Assembly (NCBI GenBank): GCA_025456145.1 | Contig: JALOLD010000003.1 | Span: 18,209 to 82,208 of the forward strand | Length of the DNA stretch: 64,000 bases | Direction of reading: 5' to 3' | DNA from: Thermoanaerobaculales bacterium | GTDB taxonomy: Bacteria; Acidobacteriota; Thermoanaerobaculia; Thermoanaerobaculales; Sulfomarinibacteraceae | Shown here: positions 14,568-51,359 of the stretch, in pieces | Layout: the number at the start of each line of letters is the position of its first letter | Numbering within the stretch: the first letter of the stretch is position 1 | Program-made: the position numbers and the translations under genes | Notes under the pieces: generated by a model | The model's database searches: none | What the model was told of the DNA's origin: nothing | The model's input: only the letters and a program-made list of their open reading frames with translations

Positions 14568-14707
14568 CGCGCCTCCCAGTCAGCACCGAACCAACCTCGC
14601 CCGCGATCGTCGCCGGGCGGGGTACGGGGCCGGGAAAGCCCGACAGCCGTAGCGGATGCACCATGATTGCACCATTGGGCCGTTCTCGGCAAGTCGCCGG
14701 TCCGACG

Positions 14708-15421: not shown

Positions 15422-15538
15422 GGCTCATCGCCGGCGACCGCGCGGCCGCGGGCGTTGCCGGCAACCCTAGCCGATCCCGGCGCCCCCGGCACGTCGCAGT
15501 GCGGCATCGGGGGCCGGTCGAACGGGGGGCGTTCGCCC

Positions 15539-17992: not shown

Positions 17993-18044
17993 GACGCCTC
18001 TCCCTTCCGACCGGGCGGACACGGTCGGAGGAACGACGCCACGG

Positions 18045-18135
18045 ACATCGACTCCAGTTCCCTCCGCCGGCATGACCCGGATCAGGTTCAAGGGGTGTGA
18101 TCTCAGCCCGGACGGGCACCCCCATGGATTGACAG
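18045..18135 (-). promoter_or_regulatory. TPP (THI-box) riboswitch aptamer
   Basis: The minus strand reads CCAUGGGGGUGCCCGUCCGGGCUGAGAUCACACCCCUUGAACCUGAUCCGGGUCAUGCCGGCGGAGGGAACUGGA. This matches the TPP aptamer consensus GGGGUGC..GCUGAGA..ACCC..UGAACCUGAUC.GG.U.AU.CC.GCG.AGGGA almost position for position (compare the E. coli thiM leader). It lies 60-140 nt upstream of the receptor start codon. Confidence 0.85.
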
Positions 18136-18157
18136 AAGCTGTGAAAGAGCTGCGACC

Positions 18158-18186
18158 ACTATCGTCGTCGGACGTTGGTCTGTCAA
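18158..18186 (-). promoter_or_regulatory. Candidate promoter of the riboswitch-receptor transcript
   Basis: The minus strand reads TTGACA (18181-18186, perfect -35), a 17-nt spacer, then GATAGT (18158-18163). The predicted TSS is about 20 nt upstream of the aptamer. Confidence 0.45.
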
Positions 18187-18312
18187 GGCAGCCGCCCGGC
18201 GGGCCGCGGTAGGGGAGGGGATTCCGGCGACCCGACGGTACGGACGCCCGTCGGCGCAAGCCATCGCTGCCGTCCCTAGAAGGGGCCGGTTCTCCGTTAT
18301 CCTAGAAAGAGG

Positions 18313-34357: not shown

Positions 34358-35560
34358 TCACTCCCAGACCTTGAGGACCTCGATCTCGGAGAGCGGTACG
34401 CGGTCGACGTAGTACAACGCGCCGCCGCGCACCGTCGTGTCCTCGTCGAGCAGGAGCTCGAGACCGTCGACATCCTTGATGATCGAGGCCCGAGTCGACC
34501 CGTCCTTGAAGATGACCGTGACCCGGGCGCCGGCAGCCGCCCGGATGGCGGCGGTCTCCGACGGTCGGATGAAGCGGAACCGGTCCAACCGTGCGTGACG
34601 GGCCCTCGTCTCCTCGATATTCAGGGTCTCGAGCCCGAAGCGGATCGCCAGCCCCTCGGCGCGGCCGAGGGTGAGATCGGCGACCTCCCAGAGGCCGCTC
34701 TCGGCGGCGCTGTCGGCCCTCGCGACGAGGAGGTCGACGAGCTGTTGGGCGGTGCCGAGCACGGTCTGGTGGTCGGGGTCGACGAGGGCGGCCCGCGAGA
34801 GATGGTCGACGACCGCGTCGACGTCGCCCTCGACCAGGGCGAGCCGGGCCCGCCCGACCTCGGTGGCGAGCACCGCGCCGGGCGCGGGCGTCCGCTCGGC
34901 GTCTCGAGGGGCGGGGGTCGGAGTGGAAGGTTGCACGAGTGGGGGAGTCGGGCTCGGGATCGCGGGCGCCGCCAGGACCCGGGGCCGTCCGCCGAGCTCG
35001 TGACGGGCGATGATCGCCACGCACACCGCCAGGGCGGCGACGAAGACGACGATCACCCCGGCCAGCGGTCTCGGGATCGCCCAGCGCGAGGGCTCCTCCG
35101 GCCCGGCCTCGTCCTCCCGGCGATCGTCTTCGTCCCGGCCGGCGGTGCGGTCCCGGTCGCGCTCGACGGCGGCCTGCGCCTCGGGGCGCGGGACCCACGG
35201 TGCCGCCGTCTCGCCCGGCGCCGCGAGCTTCTCGAGCAGGCGCTCGACGTGCGCCACCTCCTTGGCGACCGAGAGAAAGCCGTTGCTCTCGAAGAACCGC
35301 TCGACCGCGAAGAGCTCGCGGGCGAGAGCGGCGAACGGCGGCGGCTCGGCGTCGGGCTCGTCGGCATCCCCGAGACGGTCGAGGATCGCGGTCAGCCGGC
35401 GGTCGACGTCGTCCGCCTCCCGGTTGCGGGCGCCGGCCGACCGACACTTTCTCTGGATGTCGGTGAGGCGGACGATCACCGGCCGCAGATCGCGGTCGGT
35501 GGCGGCGCCGTTCGTCGTTTCTCGGTCGTTCATGGCTCCCAGGGCCCCCGGCGCGATCAT
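34358..35560 (-). CDS. Hypothetical bitopic membrane protein (acidic cytoplasmic N-terminus, one TM helix, periplasmic C-terminal domain)
   Basis: The ORF has reasonable composition and the TM helix PLAGVIVVFVAALAVCVAIIA. I recognise no family. The start is uncertain (ATG 35560 or ATG 35533). Confidence 0.6.
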   Translation of the reverse strand: MIAPGALGAMNDRETTNGAATDRDLRPVIVRLTDIQRKCRSAGARNREADDVDRRLTAILDRLGDADEPDAEPPPFAALARELFAVERFFESNGFLSVAKEVAHVERLLEKLAAPGETAAPWVPRPEAQAAVERDRDRTAGRDEDDRREDEAGPEEPSRWAIPRPLAGVIVVFVAALAVCVAIIARHELGGRPRVLAAPAIPSPTPPLVQPSTPTPAPRDAERTPAPGAVLATEVGRARLALVEGDVDAVVDHLSRAALVDPDHQTVLGTAQQLVDLLVARADSAAESGLWEVADLTLGRAEGLAIRFGLETLNIEETRARHARLDRFRFIRPSETAAIRAAAGARVTVIFKDGSTRASIIKDVDGLELLLDEDTTVRGGALYYVDRVPLSEIEVLKVWE

Positions 35561-37726: not shown

Positions 37727-38815
37727 CTAGATGTTGTTCCGCTGGAAGAGGTCGCGCAGCGCGAGCAGGATCGTGGCGAACTTCGAGCTGTTCAGAAAGC
37801 TCTGGATCTCCGACTTCGAGGCCCCGTCCTTGCGCTTCTGCCGGACCTGGGAGACCAGCTCGTAGAAATCGGACAGCGGTCGCAGCTCGAGCTTGGAGAA
37901 GTTCGACTCGTACCAGCGGTTGGTCGAGACCCGGTCCCAGACGGAGGTGGTCGGGATCTCGTTGGTGCTCCAGATCACCTCGGCGATCCCGGTCACCTCG
38001 CGGTAGATCTCCCGGAGCACCGCCTGGTGGTCGCCGCTCTCCATCGCCCGCTTGACGATCGCCGAGACCGCCTCGCGGGGCGACTCCTCCGGAGAGTCCG
38101 GCTCAGCCTCGGGGGCGAGCGTCTCGACGGCATCCGGAGGAGTGTCGGTGGTGACGCTGGCAACCGGGGCAGGGCCGTTCGTCTTTGCCGCAGCTGCTGA
38201 AGCGCGACGCATCGGCGGCCGTCCGGGGGCCTCGCGGCGGGGCGCTTCGGGGGGAGGGGTGTCACCGCTGTCCGGACGCGCCGCGTCTGTGGCGCCCGTC
38301 GCGGGGGCGCGGGGCGGTACGGCGGCGGCCGGGCGCGCCGGCCGGCTGCCCTCGGGGGGTGCGGTCGCCTCGCTTCCGGCGAGCTCCTGGACGGCCCGCC
38401 GGAACCGGAGGTGGAACGAGGTCAGGAAGTTGATCTCGGCTTCGCTGATCTCGCGGGCGCGGCCGATCTTGGCCCGCATGACCTCGAGCTCGAGGAAACG
38501 GGTGTTGAGCAGTGACTGGCCCGGTGCGAGCTTGAGGATGGGGTCGAAGAGACCCGGGTTGGCGATGATGATCTCGAAGAGATCCGGGAAGACCGCGTAC
38601 CCGATGACCTCCTGGTAGCGGTTCTCGTACCAGTCGATCGAAGCCTCCTGCTCCTTGTTCTGGATCAGGCGGTCGAAGACGTGCTCGGGAATCCCGTCAC
38701 GAAACCACTCCTTGCCGTGCCTCGTCTCGAGACGGTCGCGGACCAGGGGACGGAGGTCGGTGAGGATCTCGGCAATGACTCTGTAGGCGTCGAGGTTCTG
38801 GTCTATCCAGTCCAT
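37727..38815 (-). CDS. Hypothetical protein; the N-terminal domain resembles a Swt1-like HEPN domain with a degenerate R-x4-H motif; Pro/Ala-rich linker; unassigned C-terminal domain
   Basis: RHGKEWFRDGIPEHVFDRL ... FPDLFEIIIANPGLF ... LELEVMRAKIGRAREISEAEINFL follows the spacing pattern of Swt1-type HEPN domains, but RAKIGR replaces RNxxxH. The codon usage of both globular ends is visibly less GC-rich than the neighbours. Confidence 0.6.
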   Translation of the reverse strand: MDWIDQNLDAYRVIAEILTDLRPLVRDRLETRHGKEWFRDGIPEHVFDRLIQNKEQEASIDWYENRYQEVIGYAVFPDLFEIIIANPGLFDPILKLAPGQSLLNTRFLELEVMRAKIGRAREISEAEINFLTSFHLRFRRAVQELAGSEATAPPEGSRPARPAAAVPPRAPATGATDAARPDSGDTPPPEAPRREAPGRPPMRRASAAAAKTNGPAPVASVTTDTPPDAVETLAPEAEPDSPEESPREAVSAIVKRAMESGDHQAVLREIYREVTGIAEVIWSTNEIPTTSVWDRVSTNRWYESNFSKLELRPLSDFYELVSQVRQKRKDGASKSEIQSFLNSSKFATILLALRDLFQRNNI

Positions 38816-39346: not shown

Positions 39347-40810
39347 TCACGAGCCGGCGACCAGCGCGGCGAGATCGGGCGGCTCGGGGGCGTCCTCGAC
39401 CAGGAAGACGTGGCAGTTCTCGCAGTCCATCGGGATGACGTGCTCGCCGTCGGCGGTCGCCATCTCGTCGTCATGGCAGCGCCAGCAGCCGGGGGACTGC
39501 TCGTGGCCGATGTGGTTGGGGTGGGTCTCCCAGTTGGTGTCCATCGCCGGGAACACCGTCCGGCCGTAGGTTTGAGCGGCGGCCGTCGCACCCGCCTCGA
39601 CCAGCGGTTGCCCGGTCGACCACAGGTCGGGGTAGGTGCCGCGGTAGAACTCGAGGATCGCCTGGCGGACCGCCTCGACCCCCTCGGCGTGGGACGGGTA
39701 GTCGCCGGAGATCGCGCGCACCGCCTCGCGCTTGAAGAAGGGCAGGGCACGCAGCTCGGGCTGGTGGTCGAGAATCGCGTCGAGGGCCCACGAGGGCTGC
39801 TGGAAGAGGTGGGTCGGCCGGTTGTGGCAGTCGATGCAGTCCATGATCCGTGCCTCGGCGTCGACGACCTCGGGGGGGAGCGGCTCGTCCCCCTCGCGGG
39901 TGTAGACCCGGACCTCGCCGGCGGGAGTGGTCAGCTCGACCCAGACGATCTCCTCGCGGCGGTCGTCGGCGGCCGCATAGCGGATCCGGTTGTCCGAGTA
40001 GATGTGCCACCAGTGGATGCCGCCGTGGGTTCCCAGGTCGAGGCTGCCGCCACCGGTCTTGAGCAGCATCGCGGTGTAGGCCGGGGTGTTGGCCTCGTCG
40101 GAGGCGAACCGCGCGAAGACCCGCAGCTTGTCGCCGTGGTGCTTGCCCGGCCAGTGGCACTGCTCGCAGGTCTCGCGGGCCGGGCGGAGGGTCTCGAGCG
40201 GGGTGGCGATCGGCCGGTGGTAGGTGTCGCGGACCGTGTGCCACACCTGACGGAGCCCGTCGAGCTTGGACCGGACGAACCACGAGGCGCCCGGACCGAT
40301 GTGGCACTCGACACAGGCGACCCGGGAGTGCGGCGAGTTGGCGTAGGCGGTGTACTCGGGCTGCATCACGGTGTGGCAGGTCTCGCCGCAGAAGGCGACG
40401 GTCTCGGAGTGCTCGACGGCGAGAAACGACACGCTGCCGAGGATGACCGCGTTGGCGGCGGTGAGAAGGAGGAAGATGGTGGCGGCGCGACGCAGCTTCG
40501 GTTCATTGAAATCGAGGGTCGGGTAGGCCCGGAGCTCGGCGGCGGTCGCCCCGGCGCGGGCCAGGCGGCGCCGGCGCAGGAGCATCCCTAGGGGGATCAG
40601 CGCCAGACCGACGACGAAGAACGCCGGGAGGATGACATAGGCGAACATCCCGATGTAGGGGCTCGCCTCGAGACCGCCGAAGAGGTGGACGATCACGAAG
40701 GTCACGATGCCGATGCCGGAGAGGGTGGTCAGAGCGACCCCGGCAAGGGTGATCGGGTTGTTGGCCAGATTGAACATCCGGGCGGTGGTGCCGCTTTGGT
40801 TACGCGCCAT
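39347..40810 (-). CDS. NapC/NirT-ImcH-like membrane multiheme cytochrome c (3 TM helices, 6 CxxCH motifs)
   Basis: Heme motifs are CGETCH, CVECH, CEQCH, CIDCH, CWRCH and CENCH. There are three N-terminal hydrophobic helices. ATG 40810 is preceded by a perfect AGGAGG. Confidence 0.85.
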   Translation of the reverse strand: MARNQSGTTARMFNLANNPITLAGVALTTLSGIGIVTFVIVHLFGGLEASPYIGMFAYVILPAFFVVGLALIPLGMLLRRRRLARAGATAAELRAYPTLDFNEPKLRRAATIFLLLTAANAVILGSVSFLAVEHSETVAFCGETCHTVMQPEYTAYANSPHSRVACVECHIGPGASWFVRSKLDGLRQVWHTVRDTYHRPIATPLETLRPARETCEQCHWPGKHHGDKLRVFARFASDEANTPAYTAMLLKTGGGSLDLGTHGGIHWWHIYSDNRIRYAAADDRREEIVWVELTTPAGEVRVYTREGDEPLPPEVVDAEARIMDCIDCHNRPTHLFQQPSWALDAILDHQPELRALPFFKREAVRAISGDYPSHAEGVEAVRQAILEFYRGTYPDLWSTGQPLVEAGATAAAQTYGRTVFPAMDTNWETHPNHIGHEQSPGCWRCHDDEMATADGEHVIPMDCENCHVFLVEDAPEPPDLAALVAGS

Positions 40811-40999
40811 CGCATCCTCCTGGTCGGGCTCGTCCGGGTGTTGTCCTGCGGTCGCTGTCAGCGTCGAGGGATACTGTAGCAGGGGCCAGCGGCATCGGGG
40901 CGAGTTGCCGGAGGCGACGGGTCGACCGAGGATTGGGCGACGGGTGGCGAGGTTTTGAAAAATCGAGCCTTTGTCTCAATTCATCGTCCGGGGCTGAGC

Positions 41000-41028
41000 T
41001 TGAGAAGTCGGCTATTTGCCGATAGAGT
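41000..41028 (+). promoter_or_regulatory. Candidate sigma70-type promoter of the 23-heme cytochrome gene
   Basis: TTGAGA (41000-41005), a 17-nt spacer, then TAGAGT (41023-41028). The predicted TSS near 41035 leaves an 18-nt leader containing GGGAGAGAG before GTG 41053. Confidence 0.4.
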
Positions 41029-41052
41029 TATGTCGTGAGAGGGAGAGAGCCG

Positions 41053-44000
41053 GTGAGACCTCGCCGTTTTCGTTTCATCCCGCACGAGCGGCAGTGGGCC
41101 CTTACGACCGCGCTGGCGCTCGCCATCATCATCCCCGGGCTCGGCCTCGGGCAGACCATCGAGGACTGCCTGACCTGCCACGAGGACCCGGAGCTGGTCG
41201 GCGAGATCGGCGGCGTCGAGGTGTCGATGCACGTCGACCCCGCCGGCTTCCGATCGTCGGTGCACGGCGAGTTCGGCTGCGTGGACTGCCACGCCGACCT
41301 CGACGGCGCCGAGCTTCCGCACGACGAGGAGCTCGAGCCGGTCGACTGCGGGACCTGTCACGACGACATGGCCGCCGATCTGGCGGCCGGGCCGCACGGG
41401 AAGTGGGCGGGAGACCCGACCTCGCCATCGGCAGCCTGCGTCGGGTGTCACGGAGCCCACGACGTGCTGTCGAGCAAGACGCCGGGCGCCCCGACCGGCC
41501 CGGCGCGGGTCGATGACCTCTGCGCCCGCTGCCACGGCGTTGTGCTCAAGGCGGTGTCGGCAAGCCCCCACGGACGGATGGTCGGCGACCGCCCGGCCGC
41601 GACCTGCGCCGACTGCCACCTCGGGCACGCGGTGATCGCCCCGACCGAGCCGCTCCTCCAGCTCGACGCCTGCGGAACCTGCCACGTCGAGCAGGCCGCG
41701 GAGAATCGCGGCTCGCTGCACGGTCGGGCGGCGGTCAAGGGCGACCCGGCGGCGCCGAACTGCATCATCTGCCACGATCACCACGCGATCCGCCCGAGCA
41801 GCGACCCGGCGGCGCCGACCGCGATCCAGAACATCCCGCTGCTGTGCGGCCGCTGTCACCGCGAGGGGACCGAGGTCTCGCTCCAGCACGACATCCCGCA
41901 GGACCGGATCCTCGAGAACTTCTCGATGTCGGTGCACGGCGACGCGCTCTTCCACAAGGGCCTCACGGTGACCGCGGTGTGCACCTCGTGCCACACCGCC
42001 CACAACATCCTCGACCACAACAACCCGGCCTCGAGCATCAGCCGAGGCAACGTGGCCAGGACCTGCATGAAGTGCCACGGCAGGATCGAGGAGGTCCACG
42101 TCAAGGTCGTCGAGGGCCGGCTCTGGGAGGAGGAGCCCCACAAGATCCCGTCATGCGTCGAGTGCCACCAACCCCACAAGATCCGGCGACGCGCGGTGAC
42201 CGCTCAGGAGGCGTCGAGCCAGAGCTGTCTGGCCTGCCATGGCGACCCGACGTTGAGCGTCGAGCGCGACGGCGAGAAGGTCTCGCTGTTCGTCGACCCC
42301 GATCGCTTCGCCCTGGGCTCGCACGCCCAGACCGCCTGTGCCCAGTGTCACACCGATGTCACCCCGGGGCACAAGGAGCGGCCCTGCGCCACGATCGCCT
42401 CGCCGGTCGACTGCGGCATCTGTCACGCCGCCCGGGTCGAGGAGCACGACCTGAGCCGCCACGGCGCGCTCGCGGCCGAGGGCGACCCCGATGCGCCGAC
42501 CTGCGTCACCTGCCACGACCACCCGCACACCGTCCTCGACCACCGGCTGCCGATGGCGCCGACCTACTCGCGCAACGTCCCCAATCTCTGCGGCGAGTGC
42601 CACGCTGCCGGGGGAGCCGCGGCCCTCCGCCTCGCCGACGACCGGGACATCGTCGGCAGCTATCTCGAGAGCGCCCACGGAAGGGGGCTGATGGGCAGCG
42701 GCCTGGTGGTGTCGGCGAGCTGTATCGACTGCCACACCGCGCACTCGGCGCTGCCCCAGGACGACCCCCGCTCGACCGTCAGCCGCGGCCGGATCCTCGA
42801 CACCTGCGGCGCCTGCCACAAGGGCATCGAGGAGGAGTTCAAACGAAGCGTCCACTTCCCGGCCAACGTGGTGACCAACCAGGAGCTGCCGACCTGCGAG
42901 AGCTGCCACACCTCGCACGAGATCACCCGGATCGACGCCCAGGGCTTCCGGATGATGATGATGAACCAGTGCGGGCGCTGCCACGAGGGCTTCGCCGAGA
43001 CCTTCTTCGACACCTACCACGGCAAGGTGACCCAGCTCGGCTCGGAGGGCGCCGCCAAGTGCTACGACTGCCACGGCACCCACAACATCCTGCCGTCGGA
43101 CAACCCCGACTCGAGGCTCAGCCGGAGGCACGTGGTCGAGACCTGCGGTCAGTGTCATCCGCGGGCCCACCTCGAGTTCGCGGGCTACCTCAGCCACGCG
43201 ACCCACCACGACAAGGACAAGTACCCCTTCCTGTTCTACTCCTACTGGTTCATGACCATCCTGCTCGTCGGGACCTTGACCTTCTTCCTCGTCCACACCC
43301 TGCTGTGGCTGTTCCGGCTGTGGCGGACCCGGGACGTCTGGCGACCGCTCAAGGAGAACGGCGAGGTCGAGCGGCGCTACTACATCCGCTTCACCTCGAA
43401 GCAGCGGATCATGCACTTCGTCATGCTGCTCTGCTTCTTCGCCCTCGCGCTGTCGGGGATGGCGCTGAAGTTCTCGTTCATGGGCTGGGCCCACGCCGTG
43501 TCCCGGATCCTCGGCGGCTACGAGAGCATGGGCACGCTCCACCGCTGGGCGGCGGTAGTGCTGATCGGGCTCTTCGTCTACCACCTGCGCGACGTGTTCA
43601 GGGCCAAGGCCGCGTCCGGCAAGGGCTGGTTCGCCTACATCTTCGGCCCCAACTCGCTGATGTTCAACCTCACCGACCTGACCCAGTTCTGGCAGAGCAC
43701 CAAGTGGTTCCTCGGCCGCGGCCCGCGGCCCCACTACGGCCGCTTCACCTACTGGGAGAAGTTCGACTACTTCGCGGTCTTCTGGGGCGTGTTCGTGATC
43801 GGCTCGACCGGGCTGGTGCTGTGGTTCCCCGAGCTCTTCACCCGTCTCCTGCCCGGCTGGTCGGTCAACGTGGCGACCATCATCCACTCGGACGAGGCGT
43901 TGCTCGCCGTCGGCTTCATCTTCACCATCCACTTCTTCAACACCCACTTCCGGCCCGACAAGTTCCCGATGGACCCGGTGATCTTCACCGGCCGGGTGCC

Positions 44001-44205
44001 CCTCGACGAGCTCCGGCACGACAAGCCGGGCGAGTACGAGGAGTTCGTCGAGGGCGCCGACGAGGCCGTCCTGGCCCAACGGGTCAAGGGTCCGGCCAAG
44101 CGGCGCATCGAGAAGGCGGCGCGGATCGTCGGCTTCACCGCCCTGGCGATCGGCCTGACGTTGATCTTCCTGATCGTCTACACGATGGTCTTCGGCTACC
44201 GGTAG
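41053..44205 (+). CDS. Fusion protein: 23-heme c-type cytochrome (periplasmic) plus a C-terminal FdnI/HydC-type di-heme b cytochrome membrane domain
   Basis: I counted 23 CxxCH motifs by eye, followed in the same frame by about 6 TM helices with conserved His (RIMHF, TLHRW, VYHL, IIHSDE, FTIHFF). The start is GTG 41053 (SD-supported) or GTG 41035 (ORF-track start). Confidence 0.88.
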   Translation: MRPRRFRFIPHERQWALTTALALAIIIPGLGLGQTIEDCLTCHEDPELVGEIGGVEVSMHVDPAGFRSSVHGEFGCVDCHADLDGAELPHDEELEPVDCGTCHDDMAADLAAGPHGKWAGDPTSPSAACVGCHGAHDVLSSKTPGAPTGPARVDDLCARCHGVVLKAVSASPHGRMVGDRPAATCADCHLGHAVIAPTEPLLQLDACGTCHVEQAAENRGSLHGRAAVKGDPAAPNCIICHDHHAIRPSSDPAAPTAIQNIPLLCGRCHREGTEVSLQHDIPQDRILENFSMSVHGDALFHKGLTVTAVCTSCHTAHNILDHNNPASSISRGNVARTCMKCHGRIEEVHVKVVEGRLWEEEPHKIPSCVECHQPHKIRRRAVTAQEASSQSCLACHGDPTLSVERDGEKVSLFVDPDRFALGSHAQTACAQCHTDVTPGHKERPCATIASPVDCGICHAARVEEHDLSRHGALAAEGDPDAPTCVTCHDHPHTVLDHRLPMAPTYSRNVPNLCGECHAAGGAAALRLADDRDIVGSYLESAHGRGLMGSGLVVSASCIDCHTAHSALPQDDPRSTVSRGRILDTCGACHKGIEEEFKRSVHFPANVVTNQELPTCESCHTSHEITRIDAQGFRMMMMNQCGRCHEGFAETFFDTYHGKVTQLGSEGAAKCYDCHGTHNILPSDNPDSRLSRRHVVETCGQCHPRAHLEFAGYLSHATHHDKDKYPFLFYSYWFMTILLVGTLTFFLVHTLLWLFRLWRTRDVWRPLKENGEVERRYYIRFTSKQRIMHFVMLLCFFALALSGMALKFSFMGWAHAVSRILGGYESMGTLHRWAAVVLIGLFVYHLRDVFRAKAASGKGWFAYIFGPNSLMFNLTDLTQFWQSTKWFLGRGPRPHYGRFTYWEKFDYFAVFWGVFVIGSTGLVLWFPELFTRLLPGWSVNVATIIHSDEALLAVGFIFTIHFFNTHFRPDKFPMDPVIFTGRVPLDELRHDKPGEYEEFVEGADEAVLAQRVKGPAKRRIEKAARIVGFTALAIGLTLIFLIVYTMVFGYR

Positions 44206-44259: not shown

Positions 44260-45135
44260 TCACCCGATCGGGGTCACCGCTCGGTTGTAGACCCAGGTCA
44301 GGGCGACCGCGAAGACCGCGGCGGTGACGCCGAGACCGGCGTCGATGAACCGCGGGGCGGTCAGGGCGAGGCGGATGAGCACCGTCGCCACCGCGAAGCC
44401 GAAGTACCTGAAGACGACCGGGTAGGCGACGGTGGTGCGCAGCGAGATGAGCACGATGAGGACATCGGCGAAGATCAGCAGCGTGTAGAGGATCTCGAAG
44501 AAGTCGTGGGCCGGCGGCCGGGTCCCGGCGCCCGCCGCCGCTGCGGTCCAGCTCCAGACGACGACCGCTCCGGTGATCGCGAGCGAGGCCAGGAGGACCA
44601 GCGCGATGAGCTTCTTGGCGGCGATGAAGCTCGAGCGCTCTCCGTCGTTTCGGCCGATCGGGAGATGCCGCTGCTGCCTGACGAAGACCAGCAGCAGCGC
44701 GAAGATCGCGAGCGCTCCGAAGGCGTCGGAGAGGATGTAGAGCATCTGGTCGCGCACCCCGTGCGACCACTCGATGGGCTCGGGAAAGCTCGAGAGCTCC
44801 TTGAAGGACTGGCGGATGAGGATCAGCGACATGATCTCGAGCTGCTTGCCGACCGCGGTCGACACCGACTGGGCGAGGGCGAGGACGAGCGACACCACTT
44901 CGGCGACGAGCAACAGCGTAAACGCCCAGATGATGGCGTCGAAGTGCTTGACCGGAAAATGAGGGGCAAAGGCCGGGGGGAGCCAGCCGCGCCGGTTGAG
45001 CTCGATGACGAGGATCCCGATCAGGAAGACGAGGGTCAGGAAGGTCGCGATCCGTCGCTGGGTGGCGAGGGTCTCCCATCTCGACTCGACGCGGTCGAAG
45101 AGCTGCGATGAATGGGCGAGGATCGATCGGCCCAC
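44260..45135 (-). CDS. Hypothetical integral membrane protein (about 7 TM helices), tightly coupled to the upstream giant gene
   Basis: From ORF 44260..45306, with the start moved to GTG 45133-45135. This start is 1 nt after the upstream stop (45137-45139) and is preceded by GGAGGAG. The rejected N-terminal 57 codons are Ser/Arg/Pro-rich. TM helices include IATFLTLVFLIGILVIEL and FFEILYTLLIFADVLIVLISL. Confidence 0.7.
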   Translation of the reverse strand: MGRSILAHSSQLFDRVESRWETLATQRRIATFLTLVFLIGILVIELNRRGWLPPAFAPHFPVKHFDAIIWAFTLLLVAEVVSLVLALAQSVSTAVGKQLEIMSLILIRQSFKELSSFPEPIEWSHGVRDQMLYILSDAFGALAIFALLLVFVRQQRHLPIGRNDGERSSFIAAKKLIALVLLASLAITGAVVVWSWTAAAAGAGTRPPAHDFFEILYTLLIFADVLIVLISLRTTVAYPVVFRYFGFAVATVLIRLALTAPRFIDAGLGVTAAVFAVALTWVYNRAVTPIG

Positions 45136-45136
45136 G

Positions 45137-48100
45137 TCACTCCTCCGCCGCGGTCTGGAGCGGCCGCACCAGACCGGCGTACCGCCGCTCGACCGAGAAG
45201 CCGTGGCGGTAGAAGAACTGCGGTCGGAAGAAGCCGGTGGTGAGCCAGCGGAAGCTCTCGGCGCGCAGCCGGTTGGCGAGCTCGTCGAGCAGGCTGCCGG
45301 CGACACCGAGCCCGCGGGCGCCCTCGCTGACCACGATCTTGTCCATGTGGGCGGTGGCGGAGGCCTCGTCGACCTCGTAGAAAAGTCCGCCGAGCAGGTG
45401 TCCGCGGTCCGACACCGCGACCAAGAACCGGTGCTCGGGCCGGAACTGGACCGGGAGCTTGGCGGCGAGGAAGAGCCGGTGGAGGCGGGCGATCTCCTTC
45501 GGGCTGAGGGCGTGGCGGATCCGGTAGGGGCGTCCCTCGGAGTCGAGGCAGGTGACGACCATTTCGCTCTGGCGGACCCCGCTGGCCAGCGAGGCGACGT
45601 ACTCCGCGTCGTCCTCGGGGCGGAGGTGGGGGTAGGAGAGCCGGGCGAGGAAGAAGTCGAGCTCGGGCTCGAGGTCGAGGCGCGCCCGCAGGTCGGCGAC
45701 CGCGGCGCTCAGGTCGTCGGGGTCGATTGCGCCCGACCGGAGACCGGCGATGATCCGCTCGAGGCCCTCGGCGAGCGCCTCCGGCGCCTGGCGCAGGACG
45801 GTCTCGCGGAAGAAGCGCGCACGGCTCTCGGGATAGACCTCCCTGAGCTCGTCGAGGCGGTAGGTCTCGTAGAGCTCGAGCAAGGTCCTGGCGCGGACGG
45901 TGTGGGTGGCCTCGGGCGCGAGCCGGTCCCACTTCCGGAAGCGTTTGGCGGCGAAGTAGAGCCGGCGGGGGAGAAAGCCGCGGCGCTCGACGACCTCGAG
46001 GTAGCGCTCGAGCTCGCCGGTCCAGCCGCGCCCCGCGGCGCGGGCCTCGGCGAGCAGCCCGCCGAGCAGCGCGACGCCGTCGGCCTCGCCGACGATCTCG
46101 AGCACCGAGGAGAAGATCACCTCGCGCCCGACCACGCCCTCGAGGCGCGGGTTGAGCTGGGCGACCGGCGCCAGGAGGTCGGTCTCGAAGCTCTCCACCA
46201 GGTCGAGCAACGAGGTGAAGGGCTTGCGGGCGGCGATCGAGACGAGGCGGGCGCCGGTGTGGTAGTCGTGGGTCGGGACGATGACGTTGCCCGGCGTCGG
46301 CCGCTCGACCACCAGCCGTCGCCCGGTCCGGTCCCAGAAGTCGACATACGCCGACATCGCGCTCCACGCGGCGAACGGCCAGAGCGCCTCGAGACGCTCC
46401 CGGTCGAGCTCGCGGCGCGACAGCCGGGCGATCGCGCGGTCGAGGGTCTCGCCCGGGATGAACTCCTCGGTCCACAGTCCGTGCTCGGGCCAGCTGCCGC
46501 CGAAGTCCTCGACCAGCGGGCCGCGGTCGCGCTCCTCGGCGCAGACGACGAGCCAGTCGATCTCCTCGCGAACCTGATGGTCGTCGAGCTCGCGGTTGAG
46601 GTTGACCGCCAGGTCGAACTGGCCCTGGGCGCGGGTCTTGACCGCCATCCGGTAGACCGACTTGCCGTGGTCGGTGCCGAGGTGGCGGACCCACACCCCG
46701 TCGGGCAGGATGTCGTCGAGGCGGACCGTGGCGCCGCGCGAGAACAGGAAGATGCCCTCCTGGACCATGGTCGTGCTCTTGATCGCGGCGAGCAACCGGT
46801 GGCGCGCCTCCTCGTCGACGTCCTCGGCGAACTCGACGACGTCGTCCCAGCGGTACTCGAGCCCGGTCTCGGGGTCGACGGCGATCCGGGCCGGGCGGCC
46901 GAGCCAGCTCCGGAAGCCCTCCTCGAGCCGCGCCGCGGCCGCGCGAGCCGCCGCGCCGGCGTCGGCCGAGGAGGCGGTCACCGCGTGGCGGGTGAGGAAG
47001 CCGCGCAGCTGACGGAAGCGGGTCGGGTGGGCGGCGCCGTAGTCGGCGAGAAAGTCGAGAAGGGCCCGCGCCACGCCGGCCGCGGGATCGCCCTCGCCGG
47101 TCCGGAACCGCCGCCCGGTCTCGTCGACCAGCGCGCGGACCGTGTCGGGCGACAGCTCGTGCTCGTTGAGCGCCGCGGCGGTGGGCCGGTCGAGGAGATC
47201 GGGCACGGCGTCGAGAAAGGCGGCGAGGGTGCGGCGGAAGGTGGTCGGTCGCTCGGCGATGGCGAGGACGCGGAAGGCGCGACGGGCAACCGCCGGCCGC
47301 GAGTCGGTGGCCGAGCGGCGGAGCAGGCTCAGGGCGGTGTCGGTGAGCTCGCCGCCGCCACACTCGATGGCGTTGTCGAGAATCTCGACGGCGAGCTCGC
47401 CGGTCTCGTCGTCGGCCGCGTTGAGCAGGTGGGCGGCGAGGTGGAGGTCGTCGAGGCCCGGCTCGACCCGGGTCGCGGCCTCGGCCGCGGCGCGGCGTTG
47501 GTCCTCGCCGGCCTCGACCACGGTCGCCGAGCCGAGGCGCTCGAGATCCGCGTCCCGCCGGCGGCGGCGGTTGCGGTGCTCCGCCGAGAGCGGCGCGAAC
47601 TCGACGAGCTCGGCATTACCGAGCCAGAGCAAGGGGGTCGAGAGGAGCTGGCCGAGGTCGACCGCGGCGGAGGTCGCGAGGGTGTAGACCGCCCCCCCGA
47701 TCCGGACCTCGTCGTCCTCTCCGCGACGGATGGTCAGCGGTCTGCCGACGCTCCCCAGGCTCAGCCGGTCGCCCTCGACCGCGATCTCCTGGGTGGTGAT
47801 GCCGAGGGCCTGGAAGAGCCAGTTCGGGATGAGGATCTTGGTGCCGCCGACGCTCAGGGTGGTCCGGCGATAGAGCAGGGCGATCGTCTCGGAGAAGCTC
47901 CGCTCGATCGCCTTGCGGCGGTAGGTACCCTTGGGCGTCAGCTCGCCGCGGTCGGCGGAGAAGTCCCGGTCGATCACCGCGAAGTCGACGATCCGCTCGA
48001 AGGGGGCGAGGAAGGCGTTGGCGCTGACCACCAGCGAGCGGAAATGGGCCTTGCGTTCGGCGGCGTCGAGGGCGCCGAGATCGACCTCGCGGAAGGCGAA

Positions 48101-49888
48101 GTTGGGGTAGATGAGCGCGGTGTTGTAGGGCCGGTGGTCGCCGACCAGGAAGATCCGCCCGACCGACTCGAAGTCGCGGAACAGATTCTCGACCTTCTGC
48201 GGCGCGATGGTCTGGCCCTGGATGTTCTTGTAGATCTCCTTCTTGCGGTCGACCATGTGGAGCTCGCCGAAACGGTCGCGTTCCATGAGGTCGCCGGTGT
48301 GGAACCATCCCTGCGGGTCGAAAGACGGAGCGCCGTCGGGGTCGTCGAGATAGCCCATCATCACGTAGGGGCCGCGGATCACCAGCTCGCCGTCGGCCGC
48401 GAGCTCGGCCTCGATCCCGGGGAGCGGCCGGCCGAGGGAGTCGTCGACATAGGCGCCGGGGACGGTCATGGTGATCCCGCCGGTCGCCTCGGTCATCCCG
48501 AAGCCGCTCATCAGCTCGACGCCGTGGCGCTGGAAGAAGCGGAAGAGTTCGGGGGCGAGGTAGCCGGCGGCCGACAGGCCCCAGCGCAGCTCGCCGCCGG
48601 TGAGGAGCTCGACCGTCGCCGTGATCTCCGGGTCGGAGGCGGCCTCGACGTCGACCTCCTGACCGATCCGCTCGGCGAGCTGCATCCACTTCATCGGGAT
48701 GCTGATGAACACGGTCGGCCTGACCTCACCCATCTCGCGGACCAGCGAGTCGATCGACGGGCTCTCGGCGAAGTGGTAGGTGGCGCCCCAGAAGACGCAG
48801 CCGCACATCTCGAGGAAGCGGCCGAAGGTGTGGTAGAGCGGCAGATAGGCCAGGAAACGGTCGCCGTCGCCGATCGCGGGCAGCGCGAGGGCGCGGGCGA
48901 AGCGCTTGAAGACGATGTTGCGCTGCGAGAAGCGGATGCCCTTCGGTCGGCCGGTGGTGCCCGAGGTGTACATGATCGTCGCGAGGTCGTCGACGGCGAC
49001 CGAGCTGCGGCGCTCGCCGACCGTTTCGGACGAGACCTCGGCGGCCCTTTCGAGCAGCTGGTCGAAGGCGAGGACGTCGCGGGAGGCGGCCGCCGGGTCG
49101 AGCACGACGACGTGCTCGAGCCGGGCGAGGCGCTCACGGTTGGCGACGATCTTCCTGAGCTGCACCTCGTCCGACGCGACCACGAAGGTGGCGCCGCAGT
49201 GCTCGAGGATGTAGCCGACCTCGGCCTCGGTCGCGGTCGCCGGGATCATCACGTCGACGATGCCCGAGGTCAGACAGGCGAGATCGGTCAGGGCCATCTC
49301 GAGACGGTTGTCCGAGAGGATCGCGACCCGCCGGTCGGCGCCGCCGCCGTCGAGCGCGAGCAGGCTCCGGGCGATCAGCCCGACCCGTCCGGCAGCCTGG
49401 ATCCAGCTCACGGTGCCGCCGCCTCTGGGCAGGCCGAACAGCGGGCGCGAGCCATAGCCGGCGACCCGCTGCTCGAAGAGCGGGCCGAAGGTGAGGTTCG
49501 AGGCGTCGACCAGCCGGCGGATCAGGTCGGCCCACCGCGGCACCGCCTCGGCGCCGGCGATTCGGCCGAGCAACGCCGGCCGACGGACGACGTCGAGGTA
49601 GGACCAGGCCGCCCACCGGAGCTCGTCGTCGGGGGCCGGCGGGCCGGGACGCTGGCGGGCGACGAGGCGCTCGCCGAGGGCGAGCAGGGCGTCGAGATCG
49701 AGACGGTCGACGACCTGCTCGCCGGCGCTCCGGTTCTCGAGGAGCTGAATCGCCCGGGCGTCGGCGGCGGCCGTGTCGGGGCCGTCGGGGACGGCGAGCA
49801 GGCCCTCGACCTCCCGGACGGCATCCGTCGAGGCGACCTCGAGGAGGTCGTCGAAGGGGTCGGCGGCGCCGCTCTCGGGGTTCGTCAT
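45137..49888 (-). CDS. 1,583-aa multidomain enzyme: AMP-dependent synthetase/ligase (fatty-acyl-AMP/CoA-ligase-like), a large unassigned central region, and a C-terminal GNAT acyltransferase domain
   Basis: From ORF 45137..51061, with the start moved to ATG 49886-49888 (MTNPESGAADPFDD). The upstream 391 codons are antisense to the alpha/beta hydrolase gene and are Arg/Pro/Gly-rich. ANL motifs are MYTSGTTGRPKG, GFGMTEATG, WFHTGD and GELTPKGTYRRK. The GNAT core is VAVSDRGHLLGGLFYEV ... IVVSEGARGLGVAGSLLDELANRL. Confidence 0.85.
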   Translation of the reverse strand: MTNPESGAADPFDDLLEVASTDAVREVEGLLAVPDGPDTAAADARAIQLLENRSAGEQVVDRLDLDALLALGERLVARQRPGPPAPDDELRWAAWSYLDVVRRPALLGRIAGAEAVPRWADLIRRLVDASNLTFGPLFEQRVAGYGSRPLFGLPRGGGTVSWIQAAGRVGLIARSLLALDGGGADRRVAILSDNRLEMALTDLACLTSGIVDVMIPATATEAEVGYILEHCGATFVVASDEVQLRKIVANRERLARLEHVVVLDPAAASRDVLAFDQLLERAAEVSSETVGERRSSVAVDDLATIMYTSGTTGRPKGIRFSQRNIVFKRFARALALPAIGDGDRFLAYLPLYHTFGRFLEMCGCVFWGATYHFAESPSIDSLVREMGEVRPTVFISIPMKWMQLAERIGQEVDVEAASDPEITATVELLTGGELRWGLSAAGYLAPELFRFFQRHGVELMSGFGMTEATGGITMTVPGAYVDDSLGRPLPGIEAELAADGELVIRGPYVMMGYLDDPDGAPSFDPQGWFHTGDLMERDRFGELHMVDRKKEIYKNIQGQTIAPQKVENLFRDFESVGRIFLVGDHRPYNTALIYPNFAFREVDLGALDAAERKAHFRSLVVSANAFLAPFERIVDFAVIDRDFSADRGELTPKGTYRRKAIERSFSETIALLYRRTTLSVGGTKILIPNWLFQALGITTQEIAVEGDRLSLGSVGRPLTIRRGEDDEVRIGGAVYTLATSAAVDLGQLLSTPLLWLGNAELVEFAPLSAEHRNRRRRRDADLERLGSATVVEAGEDQRRAAAEAATRVEPGLDDLHLAAHLLNAADDETGELAVEILDNAIECGGGELTDTALSLLRRSATDSRPAVARRAFRVLAIAERPTTFRRTLAAFLDAVPDLLDRPTAAALNEHELSPDTVRALVDETGRRFRTGEGDPAAGVARALLDFLADYGAAHPTRFRQLRGFLTRHAVTASSADAGAAARAAAARLEEGFRSWLGRPARIAVDPETGLEYRWDDVVEFAEDVDEEARHRLLAAIKSTTMVQEGIFLFSRGATVRLDDILPDGVWVRHLGTDHGKSVYRMAVKTRAQGQFDLAVNLNRELDDHQVREEIDWLVVCAEERDRGPLVEDFGGSWPEHGLWTEEFIPGETLDRAIARLSRRELDRERLEALWPFAAWSAMSAYVDFWDRTGRRLVVERPTPGNVIVPTHDYHTGARLVSIAARKPFTSLLDLVESFETDLLAPVAQLNPRLEGVVGREVIFSSVLEIVGEADGVALLGGLLAEARAAGRGWTGELERYLEVVERRGFLPRRLYFAAKRFRKWDRLAPEATHTVRARTLLELYETYRLDELREVYPESRARFFRETVLRQAPEALAEGLERIIAGLRSGAIDPDDLSAAVADLRARLDLEPELDFFLARLSYPHLRPEDDAEYVASLASGVRQSEMVVTCLDSEGRPYRIRHALSPKEIARLHRLFLAAKLPVQFRPEHRFLVAVSDRGHLLGGLFYEVDEASATAHMDKIVVSEGARGLGVAGSLLDELANRLRAESFRWLTTGFFRPQFFYRHGFSVERRYAGLVRPLQTAAEE

Positions 49889-49993
49889 CGGCTCAACTCT
49901 ACTCGATTCGCGATCGCCCGCGCGCTCGACCCGACGGGAGAACCTGCCGCGCGGAGGGTTGCACGATCTCTGGGGTCGGTGTTCACTCGGCGT

Positions 49994-50887
49994 ATGAGCT
50001 TCCGGCTCGAGCGGCCGCAGCGGTCGTGGTGGCGTCGCGCGCTCGTCACCGCCGTCGTGCTCTGGGGTACGATCCTCGTCACGATGGTGCTCTTCGAGCG
50101 GTCGCTGATCTTCTTCCCGGACCGCTACCCGATCGGGAGCTGGGATGCCGGAGCGGTCGCGCGCGGCGCCGGGGTGACGATCGAGGACCGGACCTTCGCG
50201 GCCTCCGACGGGGTCACCCTCCACGCCTGGTGGTGCCGGCCGGAGATGGCCGCGGGTCCGACCTCCGACATGGTCGTGCTGTGGTTCCACGGCAACGCCG
50301 GCAACCTCGCCCAGCGGGCCGACGGGATGATCGCCCTGGCCCGGCTGCCCGCCCAGGTCCTGATCGTCGACTACCGGGGCTACGGGCGCAGCGCCGGCCG
50401 GCCGAGCGAGGAGGGGCTCTATCTCGACGGCCGGGCGGCCTGGCGCCATCTCACCGAGGACGCAGGCGTCGACCCGGGCCGTATCGTCCTGCTCGGCGTC
50501 AGCCTGGGCGGCGCGGTGGCGGTCGATCTGGCGACCGAGGTCGAGCCGGCCGGGCTGGTCCTCCAGTCGGCGTTCACCTCGGTGCCCGACATGGCCGCCC
50601 ACCACTACCCGTTCATCCCGAGCTGGCTGGTCAGGACGAGGATGGACTCGCTCGCCAAGATCGGCCGGGTTCGCTGCCCGATCCTGATCATCCACTCGTC
50701 GGACGACGAGGTCGTGCCCTTCGAGCACGGGCGGCGGCTGCACGAGGCAGCGGGCCCGGGCGCCCTTTTCGTCGCGGTCGAGGGGGCCGGGCACAACGAG
50801 ACCCGCGCGGTCGGCGGGCCGGTCGTCGACGACGCGCTGCGCCGGTTCCTGGTCGACTGCCGCGATCGCGGCGCGGGCGGGACGTGA
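49994..50887 (+). CDS. Alpha/beta hydrolase (BEM46/ABHD13-like), N-terminal TM anchor
   Basis: Only the last 297 codons of ORF 44996..50887 are credible. Motifs are WFHGNAGN, the nucleophile elbow GVSLGG, IIHSSDDEVVP and GAGHNE. Confidence 0.85.
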   Translation: MSFRLERPQRSWWRRALVTAVVLWGTILVTMVLFERSLIFFPDRYPIGSWDAGAVARGAGVTIEDRTFAASDGVTLHAWWCRPEMAAGPTSDMVVLWFHGNAGNLAQRADGMIALARLPAQVLIVDYRGYGRSAGRPSEEGLYLDGRAAWRHLTEDAGVDPGRIVLLGVSLGGAVAVDLATEVEPAGLVLQSAFTSVPDMAAHHYPFIPSWLVRTRMDSLAKIGRVRCPILIIHSSDDEVVPFEHGRRLHEAAGPGALFVAVEGAGHNETRAVGGPVVDDALRRFLVDCRDRGAGGT

Positions 50888-50951
50888 GCGGGTCGCCGAT
50901 CGCGTGGCTCCGGTCACCGGCCGCGGTGCGGGGACCGGTACAATGTTGGTC

Positions 50952-51359
50952 ATGAGATCCCTCACAGACACACAGGCGCGGTTCTTCGAAACAGTCGCCG
51001 AAACCGTGACGCCGGAGGTGGCCTCGCTCGACGCCGCCCGGCGAGCCCGGCTGCTCGCCATCGTCGACGACGCGCTGCTCGACCGGCAGCCGTCGGTGAG
51101 GAGGCAGCTCGGGACCTTCCTGTCGGTGATCCGGCTCGCCCCCCTGGTCCGCTACGGGAGGTCCTTCGACCGGCTCGACGGGGCCCGGAGGACCGCCGTC
51201 CTGCGCTGGTTCGAGAGCTGTCCGGTGGCGCTCCTGCGGAAGGGCTTCTGGGGTTTGAAGGCGCTGGTCTTCATGGGCTACTACGGCCAGCCCGAGCACT
51301 GGGCCGAGATCGGCTATGCGCCCGACTTCGACGGTCGGCCGGGGGTGCGACGTGCATGA
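50952..51359 (+). CDS. Small hypothetical protein, probable accessory subunit of the downstream GMC oxidoreductase
   Basis: The 135-aa ORF (MRSLTDTQARFFETVAETV...) overlaps the start of the GMC gene. It resembles the small subunits that precede membrane/periplasmic GMC dehydrogenases, but that assignment is not verified. Confidence 0.6.
   Translation: MRSLTDTQARFFETVAETVTPEVASLDAARRARLLAIVDDALLDRQPSVRRQLGTFLSVIRLAPLVRYGRSFDRLDGARRTAVLRWFESCPVALLRKGFWGLKALVFMGYYGQPEHWAEIGYAPDFDGRPGVRRA

Follow-up and report, generated by a model that had tools for sequence, protein, structure and literature searches.

The 64-kb stretch of DNA analysed here (the window, about 70% GC) contains a divergent pair of open reading frames (ORFs) for multiheme cytochromes: 39347..40810 on the minus strand, coding for 487 residues (the small protein), and 41053..44205 on the plus strand, coding for 1,050 residues (the large protein). 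The latter is 100% identical to the deposited protein P0001, which comes from a metagenome-assembled genome (MAG) of Thermoanaerobaculales (Acidobacteriota). A preliminary description, made from the DNA alone, had likened the pair to ImcH and CbcL of Geobacter sulfurreducens. CbcL (GSU0274) was reportedly described by Zacharoff in 2016, and ImcH (GSU3259) is said to have been described by Levar in 2014. The likeness proved stronger than an analogy: judged by motif positions and homology searches, both proteins are members of those families.

The two cytochromes and the spacer between them

The large gene occupies a single frame, open from 41026 to 44205, with a GC content at third codon positions (GC3) of 0.95. 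On alignment its best start is the GTG at 41053, which lines up with the ATG of six orthologous loci and yields the 1,050-residue product. The ORF and motif scans agree with the earlier claim that one polypeptide carries 23 CxxCH motifs and a b-type cytochrome domain without an intervening stop. Exactly 23 motifs were counted, all between residues 39 and 702, whereas 2,000 composition-preserving shuffles had 0.14 on average and never more than 3; CxxCK and longer-spaced (CxnCH) motifs were absent from the protein. The N-terminus resembles a Sec signal (RPRRFRF, a hydrophobic stretch, then GLGLG-Q), consistent with the signal peptide that had been proposed. The c domain contains 37 non-motif histidines, available as distal ligands for the 23 hemes. 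Because of this supply of histidines and the lack of atypical motifs, all 23 c-hemes are probably bis-His ligated and form a pure electron-transfer chain.

The hemes are laid out as h1, A(h2-5), A'(h6-9), B(h10-13), A(h14-17), B(h18-21), h22-23, with two kinds of four-heme unit: type A comprises hemes 2-5, 6-9 and 14-17, and type B hemes 10-13 and 18-21. Smith-Waterman comparison of module with module gave z-scores against shuffles of 15-35 within a type and 8-17 across types; a BLAST of the heme domain against itself returned the identity match only. Cytochrome_C7, Cytochrom_c3_2 and Paired_CXXCH_1 of Pfam all matched the large protein above their cut-offs, and nanowire_3heme of NCBIfam did so with 48.4 bits (cut-off 40). 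The families that the preliminary description had suggested for a check on the pair, PF01292, Paired_CXXCH_1 and Cytochrom_NNT, were thus all found above cut-off. An AlphaFold2 model of the large protein, built with 52 homologues, had a mean predicted local distance difference test (pLDDT) score of 73, with values below 50 in the linkers between modules, and a predicted template modelling (pTM) score of 0.42. The latter value means that the model has no usable global shape and that the length of the heme chain is not derivable from it. A Foldseek search against viral structures gave no match, as expected.

The C-terminal part of the large protein matched Ni_hydr_CYTB (PF01292) with 38.6 bits (cut-off 30.1), and the model has six long helices beyond residue 725. 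The best PDB match in Foldseek was FdnI, the gamma subunit of E. coli formate dehydrogenase-N (1kqf_C; TM-score 0.79 on the target, root-mean-square deviation 3.7 Å, E 3e-4), with HyaC lower. In a phmmer alignment the FdnI ligands H18, H57, H155 and H169 pair with H788, H830, H945 and H960, numbered on the 1,050-residue product. This bears out the earlier reading of about six transmembrane (TM) helices with the histidine pattern of FdnI/HydC-type di-heme cytochromes. The four histidines are invariant in the alignment of 52 homologues, as is the HFFNTHFRPDKFP stretch that follows them, and the membrane domain is very strongly conserved throughout the long CbcL family. The HFFNTHFRPDKFP stretch sits at the cytoplasmic end of TM4, and is the presumed N-side quinone site, by analogy with the structure of FdnI with 2-heptyl-4-hydroxyquinoline N-oxide. 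R/K-rich loops follow TM0, TM2 and TM4, so these loops are predicted to be cytoplasmic and the heme-c domain periplasmic. The name 'formate dehydrogenase gamma subunit', which appears in some databases, was rejected for the large protein: TIGR01583 scored 41.2 bits against a cut-off of 115.85, and the domain is fused to 23 c-hemes rather than being a stand-alone subunit of about 210 residues beside fdnG/fdnH. No genes for molybdopterin or Fe-S subunits lie close to the large gene.

For the small protein, a hydropathy scan located the three TM helices that had been described. The six CxxCH motifs attributed to it are in fact five CxxCH and one CX3CH (CGETCH). Cytochrom_NNT of Pfam matched with 30.8 bits (cut-off 24.1), over the N-terminal region of the model only, and there were weak matches to NrfH (41.7 bits in NCBIfam, cut-off 134; PDB 2j7a_C). 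Assignment to NapC, NirT, NrfH or CymA proper was rejected, as the small protein has three TM helices and six hemes, against a single helix and four or five hemes in those proteins, and the NCBIfam scores also fall short (NrfH as above; TorC 22.6 against 478).

The pattern is that of ImcH. According to Zhong and Shi (2018, PMC6295460), ImcH homologues have three TM helices in all but two cases, a CX3CH motif beside the TM domain and 5-9 CX2CH motifs, and Table S3 of that survey contains six-heme ImcH proteins from Acidobacteria, Geothrix and Anaeromyxobacter. Motif and TM positions of the small protein match these six-heme entries at an offset of about 2; the motifs lie at 142, 166, 215, 325, 442 and 463, against 144, 168, 217, 327, 444 and 465 in OFV85478.1. 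The spacing of the hemes (24, 49, 110, 117 and 21) is likewise close to that of GSU3259 (24, 49, 106, 117 and 20). The quinol site of GSU3259 at heme 1 comprises E127, H137, K173, the Gln ligand Q179 and Y188 (Pimenta et al., preprint 10.1101/2023.05.03.539133); these correspond, at a constant offset of +9, to E136, H146, K182, Q188 and Y197. In an alignment of 41 sequences K182, Q188 and the C..CH residues are invariant, position 136 is E in 37 and D in 4, and position 197 is Y in 39 and F in 2. The seventh, C-terminal heme is missing, the chain ending 24 residues past the sixth motif. This does not exclude membership, because a six-heme subclass is recognised and the family spans 6-10 motifs. 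By these correspondences the small protein is a textbook six-heme member of the ImcH family.

The spacer between the genes measures 242 bp to the GTG at 41053; the 224 bp given earlier is the distance to the GTG at 41035. It had been called AT-rich, which holds relative to its flanks (61.6% against about 70% GC) but not in absolute terms. Promoter-like hexamers had been proposed for both genes. One sigma-70-like site was found where 0.3 were expected, TTGAGA-17-TAGAGT at 41000-41028, and it is a candidate for the plus-strand gene only; the same scan of the spacer gave no comparable signal for the minus-strand imcH. The spacers of six orthologous loci (L001, L003, L008, L009, L018 and L023) share CTCAAT...CTTGA(A/G)...17 nt...TA(C/G)AGT, and the GTCTCAAT box, about 20 nt upstream of the -35 element, is kept in orthologous spacers whose proteins are 64-81% identical. 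The conservation of both site and box therefore supports a real promoter for the long cbcL. The box could be the binding site of a regulator.

Table 1 Positions of the predicted features of the two cytochrome genes in the window
Feature	Position	Strand	Basis
Long cbcL-family gene, 1,050 residues, 23 c-type hemes fused with a di-heme cytochrome b	41053..44205	+	ORF, motifs, Pfam, homologues
Conserved promoter region of long cbcL: box GTCTCAAT (40973-40980), -35 TTGAGA (41000-41005), -10 TAGAGT (41023-41028)	40973..41028	+	
Shine-Dalgarno GGGAGAG (41041-41047) and GTG start (41053)	41041..41055	+	sequence, orthologue alignment
Predicted Sec signal peptide VRPRRFRFIPHERQWALTTALALAIIIPGLGLGQ	41053..41160	+	direct sequence reading; AlphaFold helix at residues 11-30
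Periplasmic 23-heme domain, repeated four-heme modules	41167..43158	+	motif positions, module scoring, Pfam/NCBIfam
Extra type-A four-heme module (h6-9, equivalently h2-5), present in 23-heme but not 19-/21-heme forms	41590..41877	+	gap patterns, 87 loci
Six-helix membrane domain: linker TM0, four-helix FdnI/HydC-type core TM1-4, extra C-terminal TM5	43237..44202	+	Pfam, Foldseek, model
Heme-b ligand His: H788 (43414-43416), H830 (43540-43542), H945 (43885-43887), H960 (43930-43932)	43414..43932	+	phmmer to FdnI
imcH-family gene, 487-residue inner-membrane multiheme quinol dehydrogenase, six-heme subclass	39347..40810	-	ORF, Pfam, Table S3 match
Three N-terminal TM helices, residues 23-41, 59-77, 112-130	40421..40744	-	hydropathy scan
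CX3CH heme-1 motif CGETCH, residues 141-146, adjoining TM3; presumed P-side menaquinol site	40373..40390	-	sequence and GSU3259 correspondence
Signature residues E136, K182, Q188, Y197	40403-40405, 40265-40267, 40247-40249, 40220-40222	-	GSU3259 correspondence
Periplasmic heme domain: CX3CH at residue 141, CxxCH at 166, 215, 325, 442, 463	39410..40390	-	motif scan

Family membership, distribution and gene linkage

The homologues of CbcL, MtrH and MtoC catalogued by Zhong and Shi (2018, PMC6295460) have 3-23 heme motifs, 416-1,034 residues and usually six TM helices. CbcL of G. sulfurreducens itself has nine CX2CH motifs within the N-terminal half of the chain, and its C-terminal half contains six TM helices; Table S2 of the survey places the hemes of GSU0274 at 34-257 and the helices at 285-611 (PMC6295460). 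Since the hemes precede the helices there too, the domain order of the large protein is not the opposite of that in CbcL, as had been stated, but the same. Nor is the number of hemes new, as had been implied. GBD91784.1 ('bacterium BMS3Abin04 fdoI', 1,034 residues), which the survey reached from CbcL by BLAST, is the sole 23-heme entry in Table S2 (PMC6295460). Its motifs lie 16-18 residues before those of the ORF counted from 41035 and its six TM helices at corresponding positions, and it is probably an orthologue of the large protein.

Intermediate homologues link the large protein to the shorter forms. BLASTP against P0408, a 9-heme CbcL-like protein whose motif spacing resembles the Geobacter type, gave 34% identity over 650 columns (E 6e-103). 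A search with the b domain found 2,401 representatives (50% clustering) at E<=1e-3 and 396 at E<=1e-30; in every full-length representative among the 396 the b domain is C-terminal. The matches include 9-heme proteins of about 615 residues with the Geobacter-type motif spacing, at 39-43% identity. On this homology the large protein is a member of the CbcL/MtrH/MtoC family and not just an analogue.

More than 120 full-length relatives of the large protein were found, with 49-81% identity. Clusters of proteins with 23 hemes and about 1,050 residues account for 92 of the 120 closest, and those with 21 hemes for 18; in the species-representative genomes of GTDB, at least 599 stretches encode relatives. 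The search for the same fusion elsewhere, which had been suggested at the outset, was therefore successful. Long CbcL proteins are present in Acidobacteriota, Gemmatimonadota, Woeseiaceae, Zixibacteria, Eisenbacteria, Krumholzibacteriia, Ignavibacteria, Calditrichota, Phycisphaerae, Verrucomicrobiota, Bacteroidota and others; none of the homologues and loci listed has more than 23 hemes. In 87 loci the 19-heme forms have the gap pattern MsssLsssMsssLsssss, to which the 21-heme forms add 'ss' and the 23-heme forms 'ssss' after heme 5, and the published 11-heme members resemble h1-A-B-(2). By these gap patterns the long CbcL family is modular, with 19, 21 or 23 hemes, and has grown at one fixed point.

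The c and b parts are not fused everywhere. In two Melioribacter loci (L083:9968-12889 and L086:9920-12868) a 19-heme c part, which includes TM0, and the b part are neighbouring separate genes, and in L078:9812-12844 they also appear to be separate ORFs. In Melioribacter, where this was checked, the two parts are set apart by several stops and a new ATG. The split is therefore a distinct natural arrangement, and the fusion is one lineage-specific state of a conserved complex. A different kind of interruption was seen in a MAG of Sulfomarinibacteraceae (L010:8196-9667), in which the imcH orthologue is in three overlapping ORF fragments and the cbcL product has 20 motifs and a shortened N-terminus. 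These breaks are probably frameshifts or assembly errors of a long-read MAG; possibly the genes are pseudogenes.

Gene linkage was counted in 80 species-representative loci, with a radius of 10 kb for ImcH-like and further multiheme genes. The divergent imcH/cbcL pair, with flanking SLT and CoA-binding genes, recurs in relatives whose proteins are 64-81% identical. Of the 80 loci, 21 have an ImcH-like gene no more than 10 kb away; among the 44 loci whose flanks reach 5 kb or more on each side, the number is 13. The gene is immediately adjacent to the long cbcL in 18 of the 21, and all four orientations are found. In several phyla (L052, L067 and L076) imcH and long cbcL are in tandem with 1-nt spacing or an overlap of the open frames. 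A gene for a shorter CbcL paralogue, with 9-17 and mostly 11-13 hemes, stands next to the long cbcL in 32 of the 80 loci, and further multiheme genes lie within 10 kb in 41. Such pairing could already be deduced from the 2018 tables (PMC6295460), where cbcL and imcH have consecutive locus tags, for example A2X96_02390 and A2X96_02395; it is therefore not new, and the parts of that paper's text available to us pass over it without comment.

Particular loci place the long cbcL among other electron-transfer genes. In an uncultured member of the Woeseiaceae (L027:3256-16143) mtrC, mtrA and mtrB, all above their NCBIfam cut-offs, are followed by a 19-heme cbcL, an 11-heme cbcL and imcH. Apart from mtrA, mtrC, the cbcL genes and imcH, this locus contains no gene for a cytochrome with three or more hemes. 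It is a compact candidate, on gene content, for a complete extracellular electron-transfer pathway. MtrC and MtrA are also encoded near the long cbcL in an acidobacterial locus (L057). Small multiheme genes, for proteins of 150-280 residues, adjoin the long cbcL in L006/L013, L022 and L031. The first of these (L006/L013:3849-11012), from an FCB group bacterium, has a tandem of genes for a NapC/NirT-like protein of 655 residues and 17 CxxCH motifs, a CbcL-like protein with 11 hemes and a CbcL with 23, with three small multiheme genes upstream of this putative quinol-oxidase trio; in L006 an operon for a NiFe hydrogenase, which includes a cytochrome b of its own, follows 1.7 kb downstream. As a separate observation, the orthologous pair in L001 is followed (12600-19162) by an Alternative Complex III-like cluster encoding a c7-type cytochrome, a 1,021-residue Fe-S protein, NrfD, ActD and a mono-heme cytochrome c; the cluster is missing at the corresponding position of the window.

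Proposed function and its alternatives

The locus is likely to encode two alternative inner-membrane menaquinol:cytochrome c oxidoreductases that feed extracellular electron transfer. The ImcH-family enzyme, which is NrfH/NapC-like, would oxidise menaquinol on the periplasmic face at heme 1, with its CX3CH motif and His/Gln ligation, release the protons to the periplasm and pass the electrons through its six c-hemes to periplasmic acceptors. It would be electroneutral and suited to acceptors of higher potential. In the long CbcL, menaquinol would be oxidised near the b heme on the cytoplasmic side, at a site like that of FdnI, a position suggested by the FdnI-like b domain, and the electrons would cross the membrane by way of the two b hemes and then the 23 c-hemes to periplasmic or outer-membrane cytochromes. 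As these electrons would move outward with the membrane potential, acceptors of lower potential would be within reach, at a cost in energy yield. Both enzymes would supply a chain to extracellular metals, minerals or humics, the outer-membrane part of which would be encoded elsewhere in the genome.

This reading draws on work with Geobacter, in which CbcL is used for acceptors at or below about -0.1 V and ImcH above. The periplasmic domain of CbcL has nine bis-His hemes and reduces PpcA (PMC9129911). Pimenta et al. regard ImcH as electroneutral, suggest an N-side quinol site for CbcL and argue that quinol oxidation on the N-side favours low-potential acceptors at a cost in energy yield (preprint 10.1101/2023.05.03.539133). 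We infer from this the direction of electron flow, the positions of the quinone sites and the nature of the acceptors; the division of work by redox potential would, by analogy, carry over from Geobacter genetics. A role in extracellular electron transfer is supported by the linkage of long cbcL genes to mtrCAB in L027, to imcH, to cbcL paralogues and to further multiheme genes. In addition, Thermoanaerobaculum aquaticum, of the same class, is a Fe(III) reducer with genes for MtrA and MtrC (PMC9671151).

Several points count against it. Co-expression fits the tandem pairs with 1-nt spacing or overlap better than use of the two enzymes as alternatives does. Cytochromes of the FdnI/HydC type usually reduce quinone, and the family includes MtoC of Fe(II) oxidisers (PMC6295460), so the proposed direction of flow is tentative. 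The window encodes neither an outer-membrane conduit nor a small periplasmic cytochrome, and the absence of a porin-cytochrome partner had been noted correctly, since no ORF of the 64 kb other than the pair has two or more CxxCH motifs. The assignments to CbcL and ImcH themselves depend on published motif tables and intermediate homologues. For the 19-23-heme homologues the literature gave the 2018 catalogue only, and no functional or structural experiment on any member.

It is possible, though rather doubtful, that the 23-heme chain refines this scheme as an extended, membrane-anchored wire that crosses the periplasm and feeds a conduit such as MtrA without a soluble shuttle. Extended cytochromes are about 12 nm long with 12 hemes (GSU1996) or about 8 nm with 10 (MtrA). 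At about 30 residues per heme the large protein resembles both, and a linear chain of 23 hemes would span some 18-23 nm, the order of a periplasm. The nanowire_3heme match above its cut-off points the same way, as does the gradation from 19 through 21 to 23 hemes at one fixed insertion point, which resembles a tuning of length; and where the long cbcL lies beside mtrCAB, in L027, there is no further gene for a cytochrome of three or more hemes. However, the geometry of the model is unreliable, with its low pTM and poorly predicted linkers, and four-heme c3-like modules can pack compactly, as in HmcA. Moreover, small multiheme genes stand beside the long cbcL in L006/L013, L022 and L031, and the CbcL of Geobacter employs a shuttle, PpcA. 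The same doubt attaches to a wider version of the idea, in which the whole 19-23-heme subfamily would be a periplasm-spanning wire from the menaquinone pool to MtrAB-type conduits that takes the place of soluble shuttles, tuned by lineage in four- or two-heme steps, and would form with ImcH and the shorter CbcL a conserved three-enzyme quinol-oxidase island in many uncultured sediment and soil phyla (Acidobacteriota, Gemmatimonadota, Woeseiaceae, Zixibacteria, Ignavibacteria and others).

Less probable still is that the long CbcL runs in reverse, as a quinone reductase like FdnI, HydC or MtoC. Its heme chain would take up electrons from donors in the periplasm or outside the cell and pass them to menaquinone on the cytoplasmic face, generating proton-motive force, and the linked ImcH would re-oxidise the menaquinol on the periplasmic face. 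The two enzymes would then form a loop from a low-potential donor to a higher-potential acceptor, both outside the cytoplasm. Characterised cytochromes b of the FdnI and HydC types are quinone reductases and NrfH-type proteins quinol oxidases, and Wolinella pairs both module types in a loop from formate or H2 to nitrite. The adjacency of imcH in 18 of the 21 linked loci, often in tandem (L052, L067, L076), suggests co-expression, but ImcH is linked in only 21 of 80 loci. Zhong and Shi concluded that the CbcL/MtrH/MtoC family works in both directions (PMC6295460), whereas Geobacter genetics put CbcL on the reductive, quinol-oxidising route. A NiFe hydrogenase operon lies 1.7 kb away in L006, but this hydrogenase has its own cytochrome b, and no donor-side enzyme is encoded in the window.

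A catalytic heme domain, reducing for example nitrite, hydroxylamine, sulfite or tetrathionate and anchored to a quinol-oxidising b subunit, is very improbable: hydroxylamine oxidoreductases were the next-best PDB matches in Foldseek (E 0.09-0.5, TM-score 0.25-0.27 on the target), but these are not significant, the protein has no CxxCK or other atypical motif and enough histidines for bis-His ligation of all 23 hemes, the repeated c3/c7 modules are typical of electron-transfer chains, and Pfam and NCBIfam show no catalytic family; this candidate was rejected. An assembly or frameshift artefact joining the c and b parts is scarcely credible and was also rejected, for although the source genome is a MAG and the parts are separate in L083, L086 and apparently L078, over 100 full-length homologues, independent and drawn from various samples and phyla, are co-linear with the large protein, its gene is in one frame with high GC3, and the Melioribacter split, with several stops and its own ATG, is a natural arrangement.

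Surroundings and comparison with known systems

The genes that flank the pair are seemingly non-respiratory: an SLT transglycosylase, a CoA-binding protein, a 1,974-residue AMP-binding/GNAT protein, GMC oxidoreductases and a Ser/Thr kinase. The very large ORF (45137-51061, minus strand) has an AMP-binding (acyl-CoA synthetase-like) domain in its middle and a C-terminal GNAT acetyltransferase domain, while long stretches in its N-terminal and central parts are without a Pfam match; a counterpart of 1,584 residues is syntenic in L003. Three minus-strand ORFs (37727-38815, 34358-35560 and 44260-45306) have good coding statistics and no match in Pfam or NCBIfam. The first two are syntenic beside the cytochrome pair in L001-L003, and the third, on the strand opposite to cbcL and directly 3' of it, looks like a multi-pass membrane protein. 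Further away, a Ser/Thr protein kinase with a long TPR array fused to it (54565-57921, plus strand) and a SpoIIE/PP2C-type phosphatase (62147-63553, plus strand) may be a signalling pair, with no apparent link to the cytochromes.

Among the nearest known relatives of the large protein is CbcL GSU0274. Both proteins have a signal peptide, a periplasmic multiheme c domain and a six-helix di-heme b domain of the HydC/FdnI type in which the b-heme histidines are conserved. Against 9-heme proteins whose motifs are spaced in the Geobacter manner, the b domain of the large protein shows about 40% identity; the last six hemes of the large protein share their gaps (about 44, 28, 30, 25, 30 and 28) with the 11-heme members of the family, and Geobacter CbcL also ends in an L-s pair of gaps (43, 28). 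The two differ in size, with 23 hemes against 9 and about 1,050 residues against 619, in the repeated four-heme A and B modules of the large protein, and in origin, Acidobacteriota against Desulfuromonadia. GBD91784.1 has the same architecture and the same 23 motifs; it belongs to another organism or bin and appears only as a table entry in the 2018 survey. The small protein shares with ImcH GSU3259 the three TM helices, the CX3CH heme 1 after TM3, the distal Gln ligand, the E, K and Y residues and the spacing of hemes 1-6, but is without the seventh C-terminal heme, which in Geobacter is the proposed docking point for partners. The two genes are divergently paired here, whereas they are unlinked in G. 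sulfurreducens (GSU0274 and GSU3259).

More distant comparisons concern the two halves of the fusion. FdnI (1kqf_C) and HyaC/HydC have the same four-helix di-heme b fold, the four ligands and an 'ALSG' motif in TM1. The large protein is only 17% identical to FdnI, has the extra helices TM0 and TM5, and carries a fused cytochrome c where FdnI docks to an Fe-S subunit. Quinone reduction is the reaction of FdnI, quinol oxidation the one ascribed to CbcL. The 'nanowire' cytochrome GSU1996 (12 hemes) and HmcA (16 hemes) are likewise built of tandem three- or four-heme modules, in keeping with the c7/c3 and nanowire_3heme matches of the large protein. They are, however, soluble periplasmic proteins without a fused quinol-oxidising domain, and Foldseek gave no significant match of the large protein to them. 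The split versions, in Melioribacter (L083 and L086) and in 'cluster 1' of MBNT15 (PMC9386147), consist of a multiheme cytochrome c and a separate four-TM cytochrome b; the Melioribacter form has the same c part (19 hemes and the TM0 anchor) and b part as two polypeptides.

What is new here is thus a further pair of ImcH and CbcL, the 23-heme protein being the longest form of CbcL known and one catalogued in 2018. If the two proteins are indeed alternative quinol oxidases, nothing about them is new in kind: Thermoanaerobaculales would carry the two quinol-oxidase families of Geobacter, which agrees with the known reduction of Fe(III) and Mn(IV) in the class. The long forms, with 19-23 hemes, are nevertheless among the most widespread inner-membrane multiheme proteins of uncultured sediment and soil bacteria, and with its clear definition the subfamily is a good target for studies of electron passage through the periplasm in organisms other than the models.

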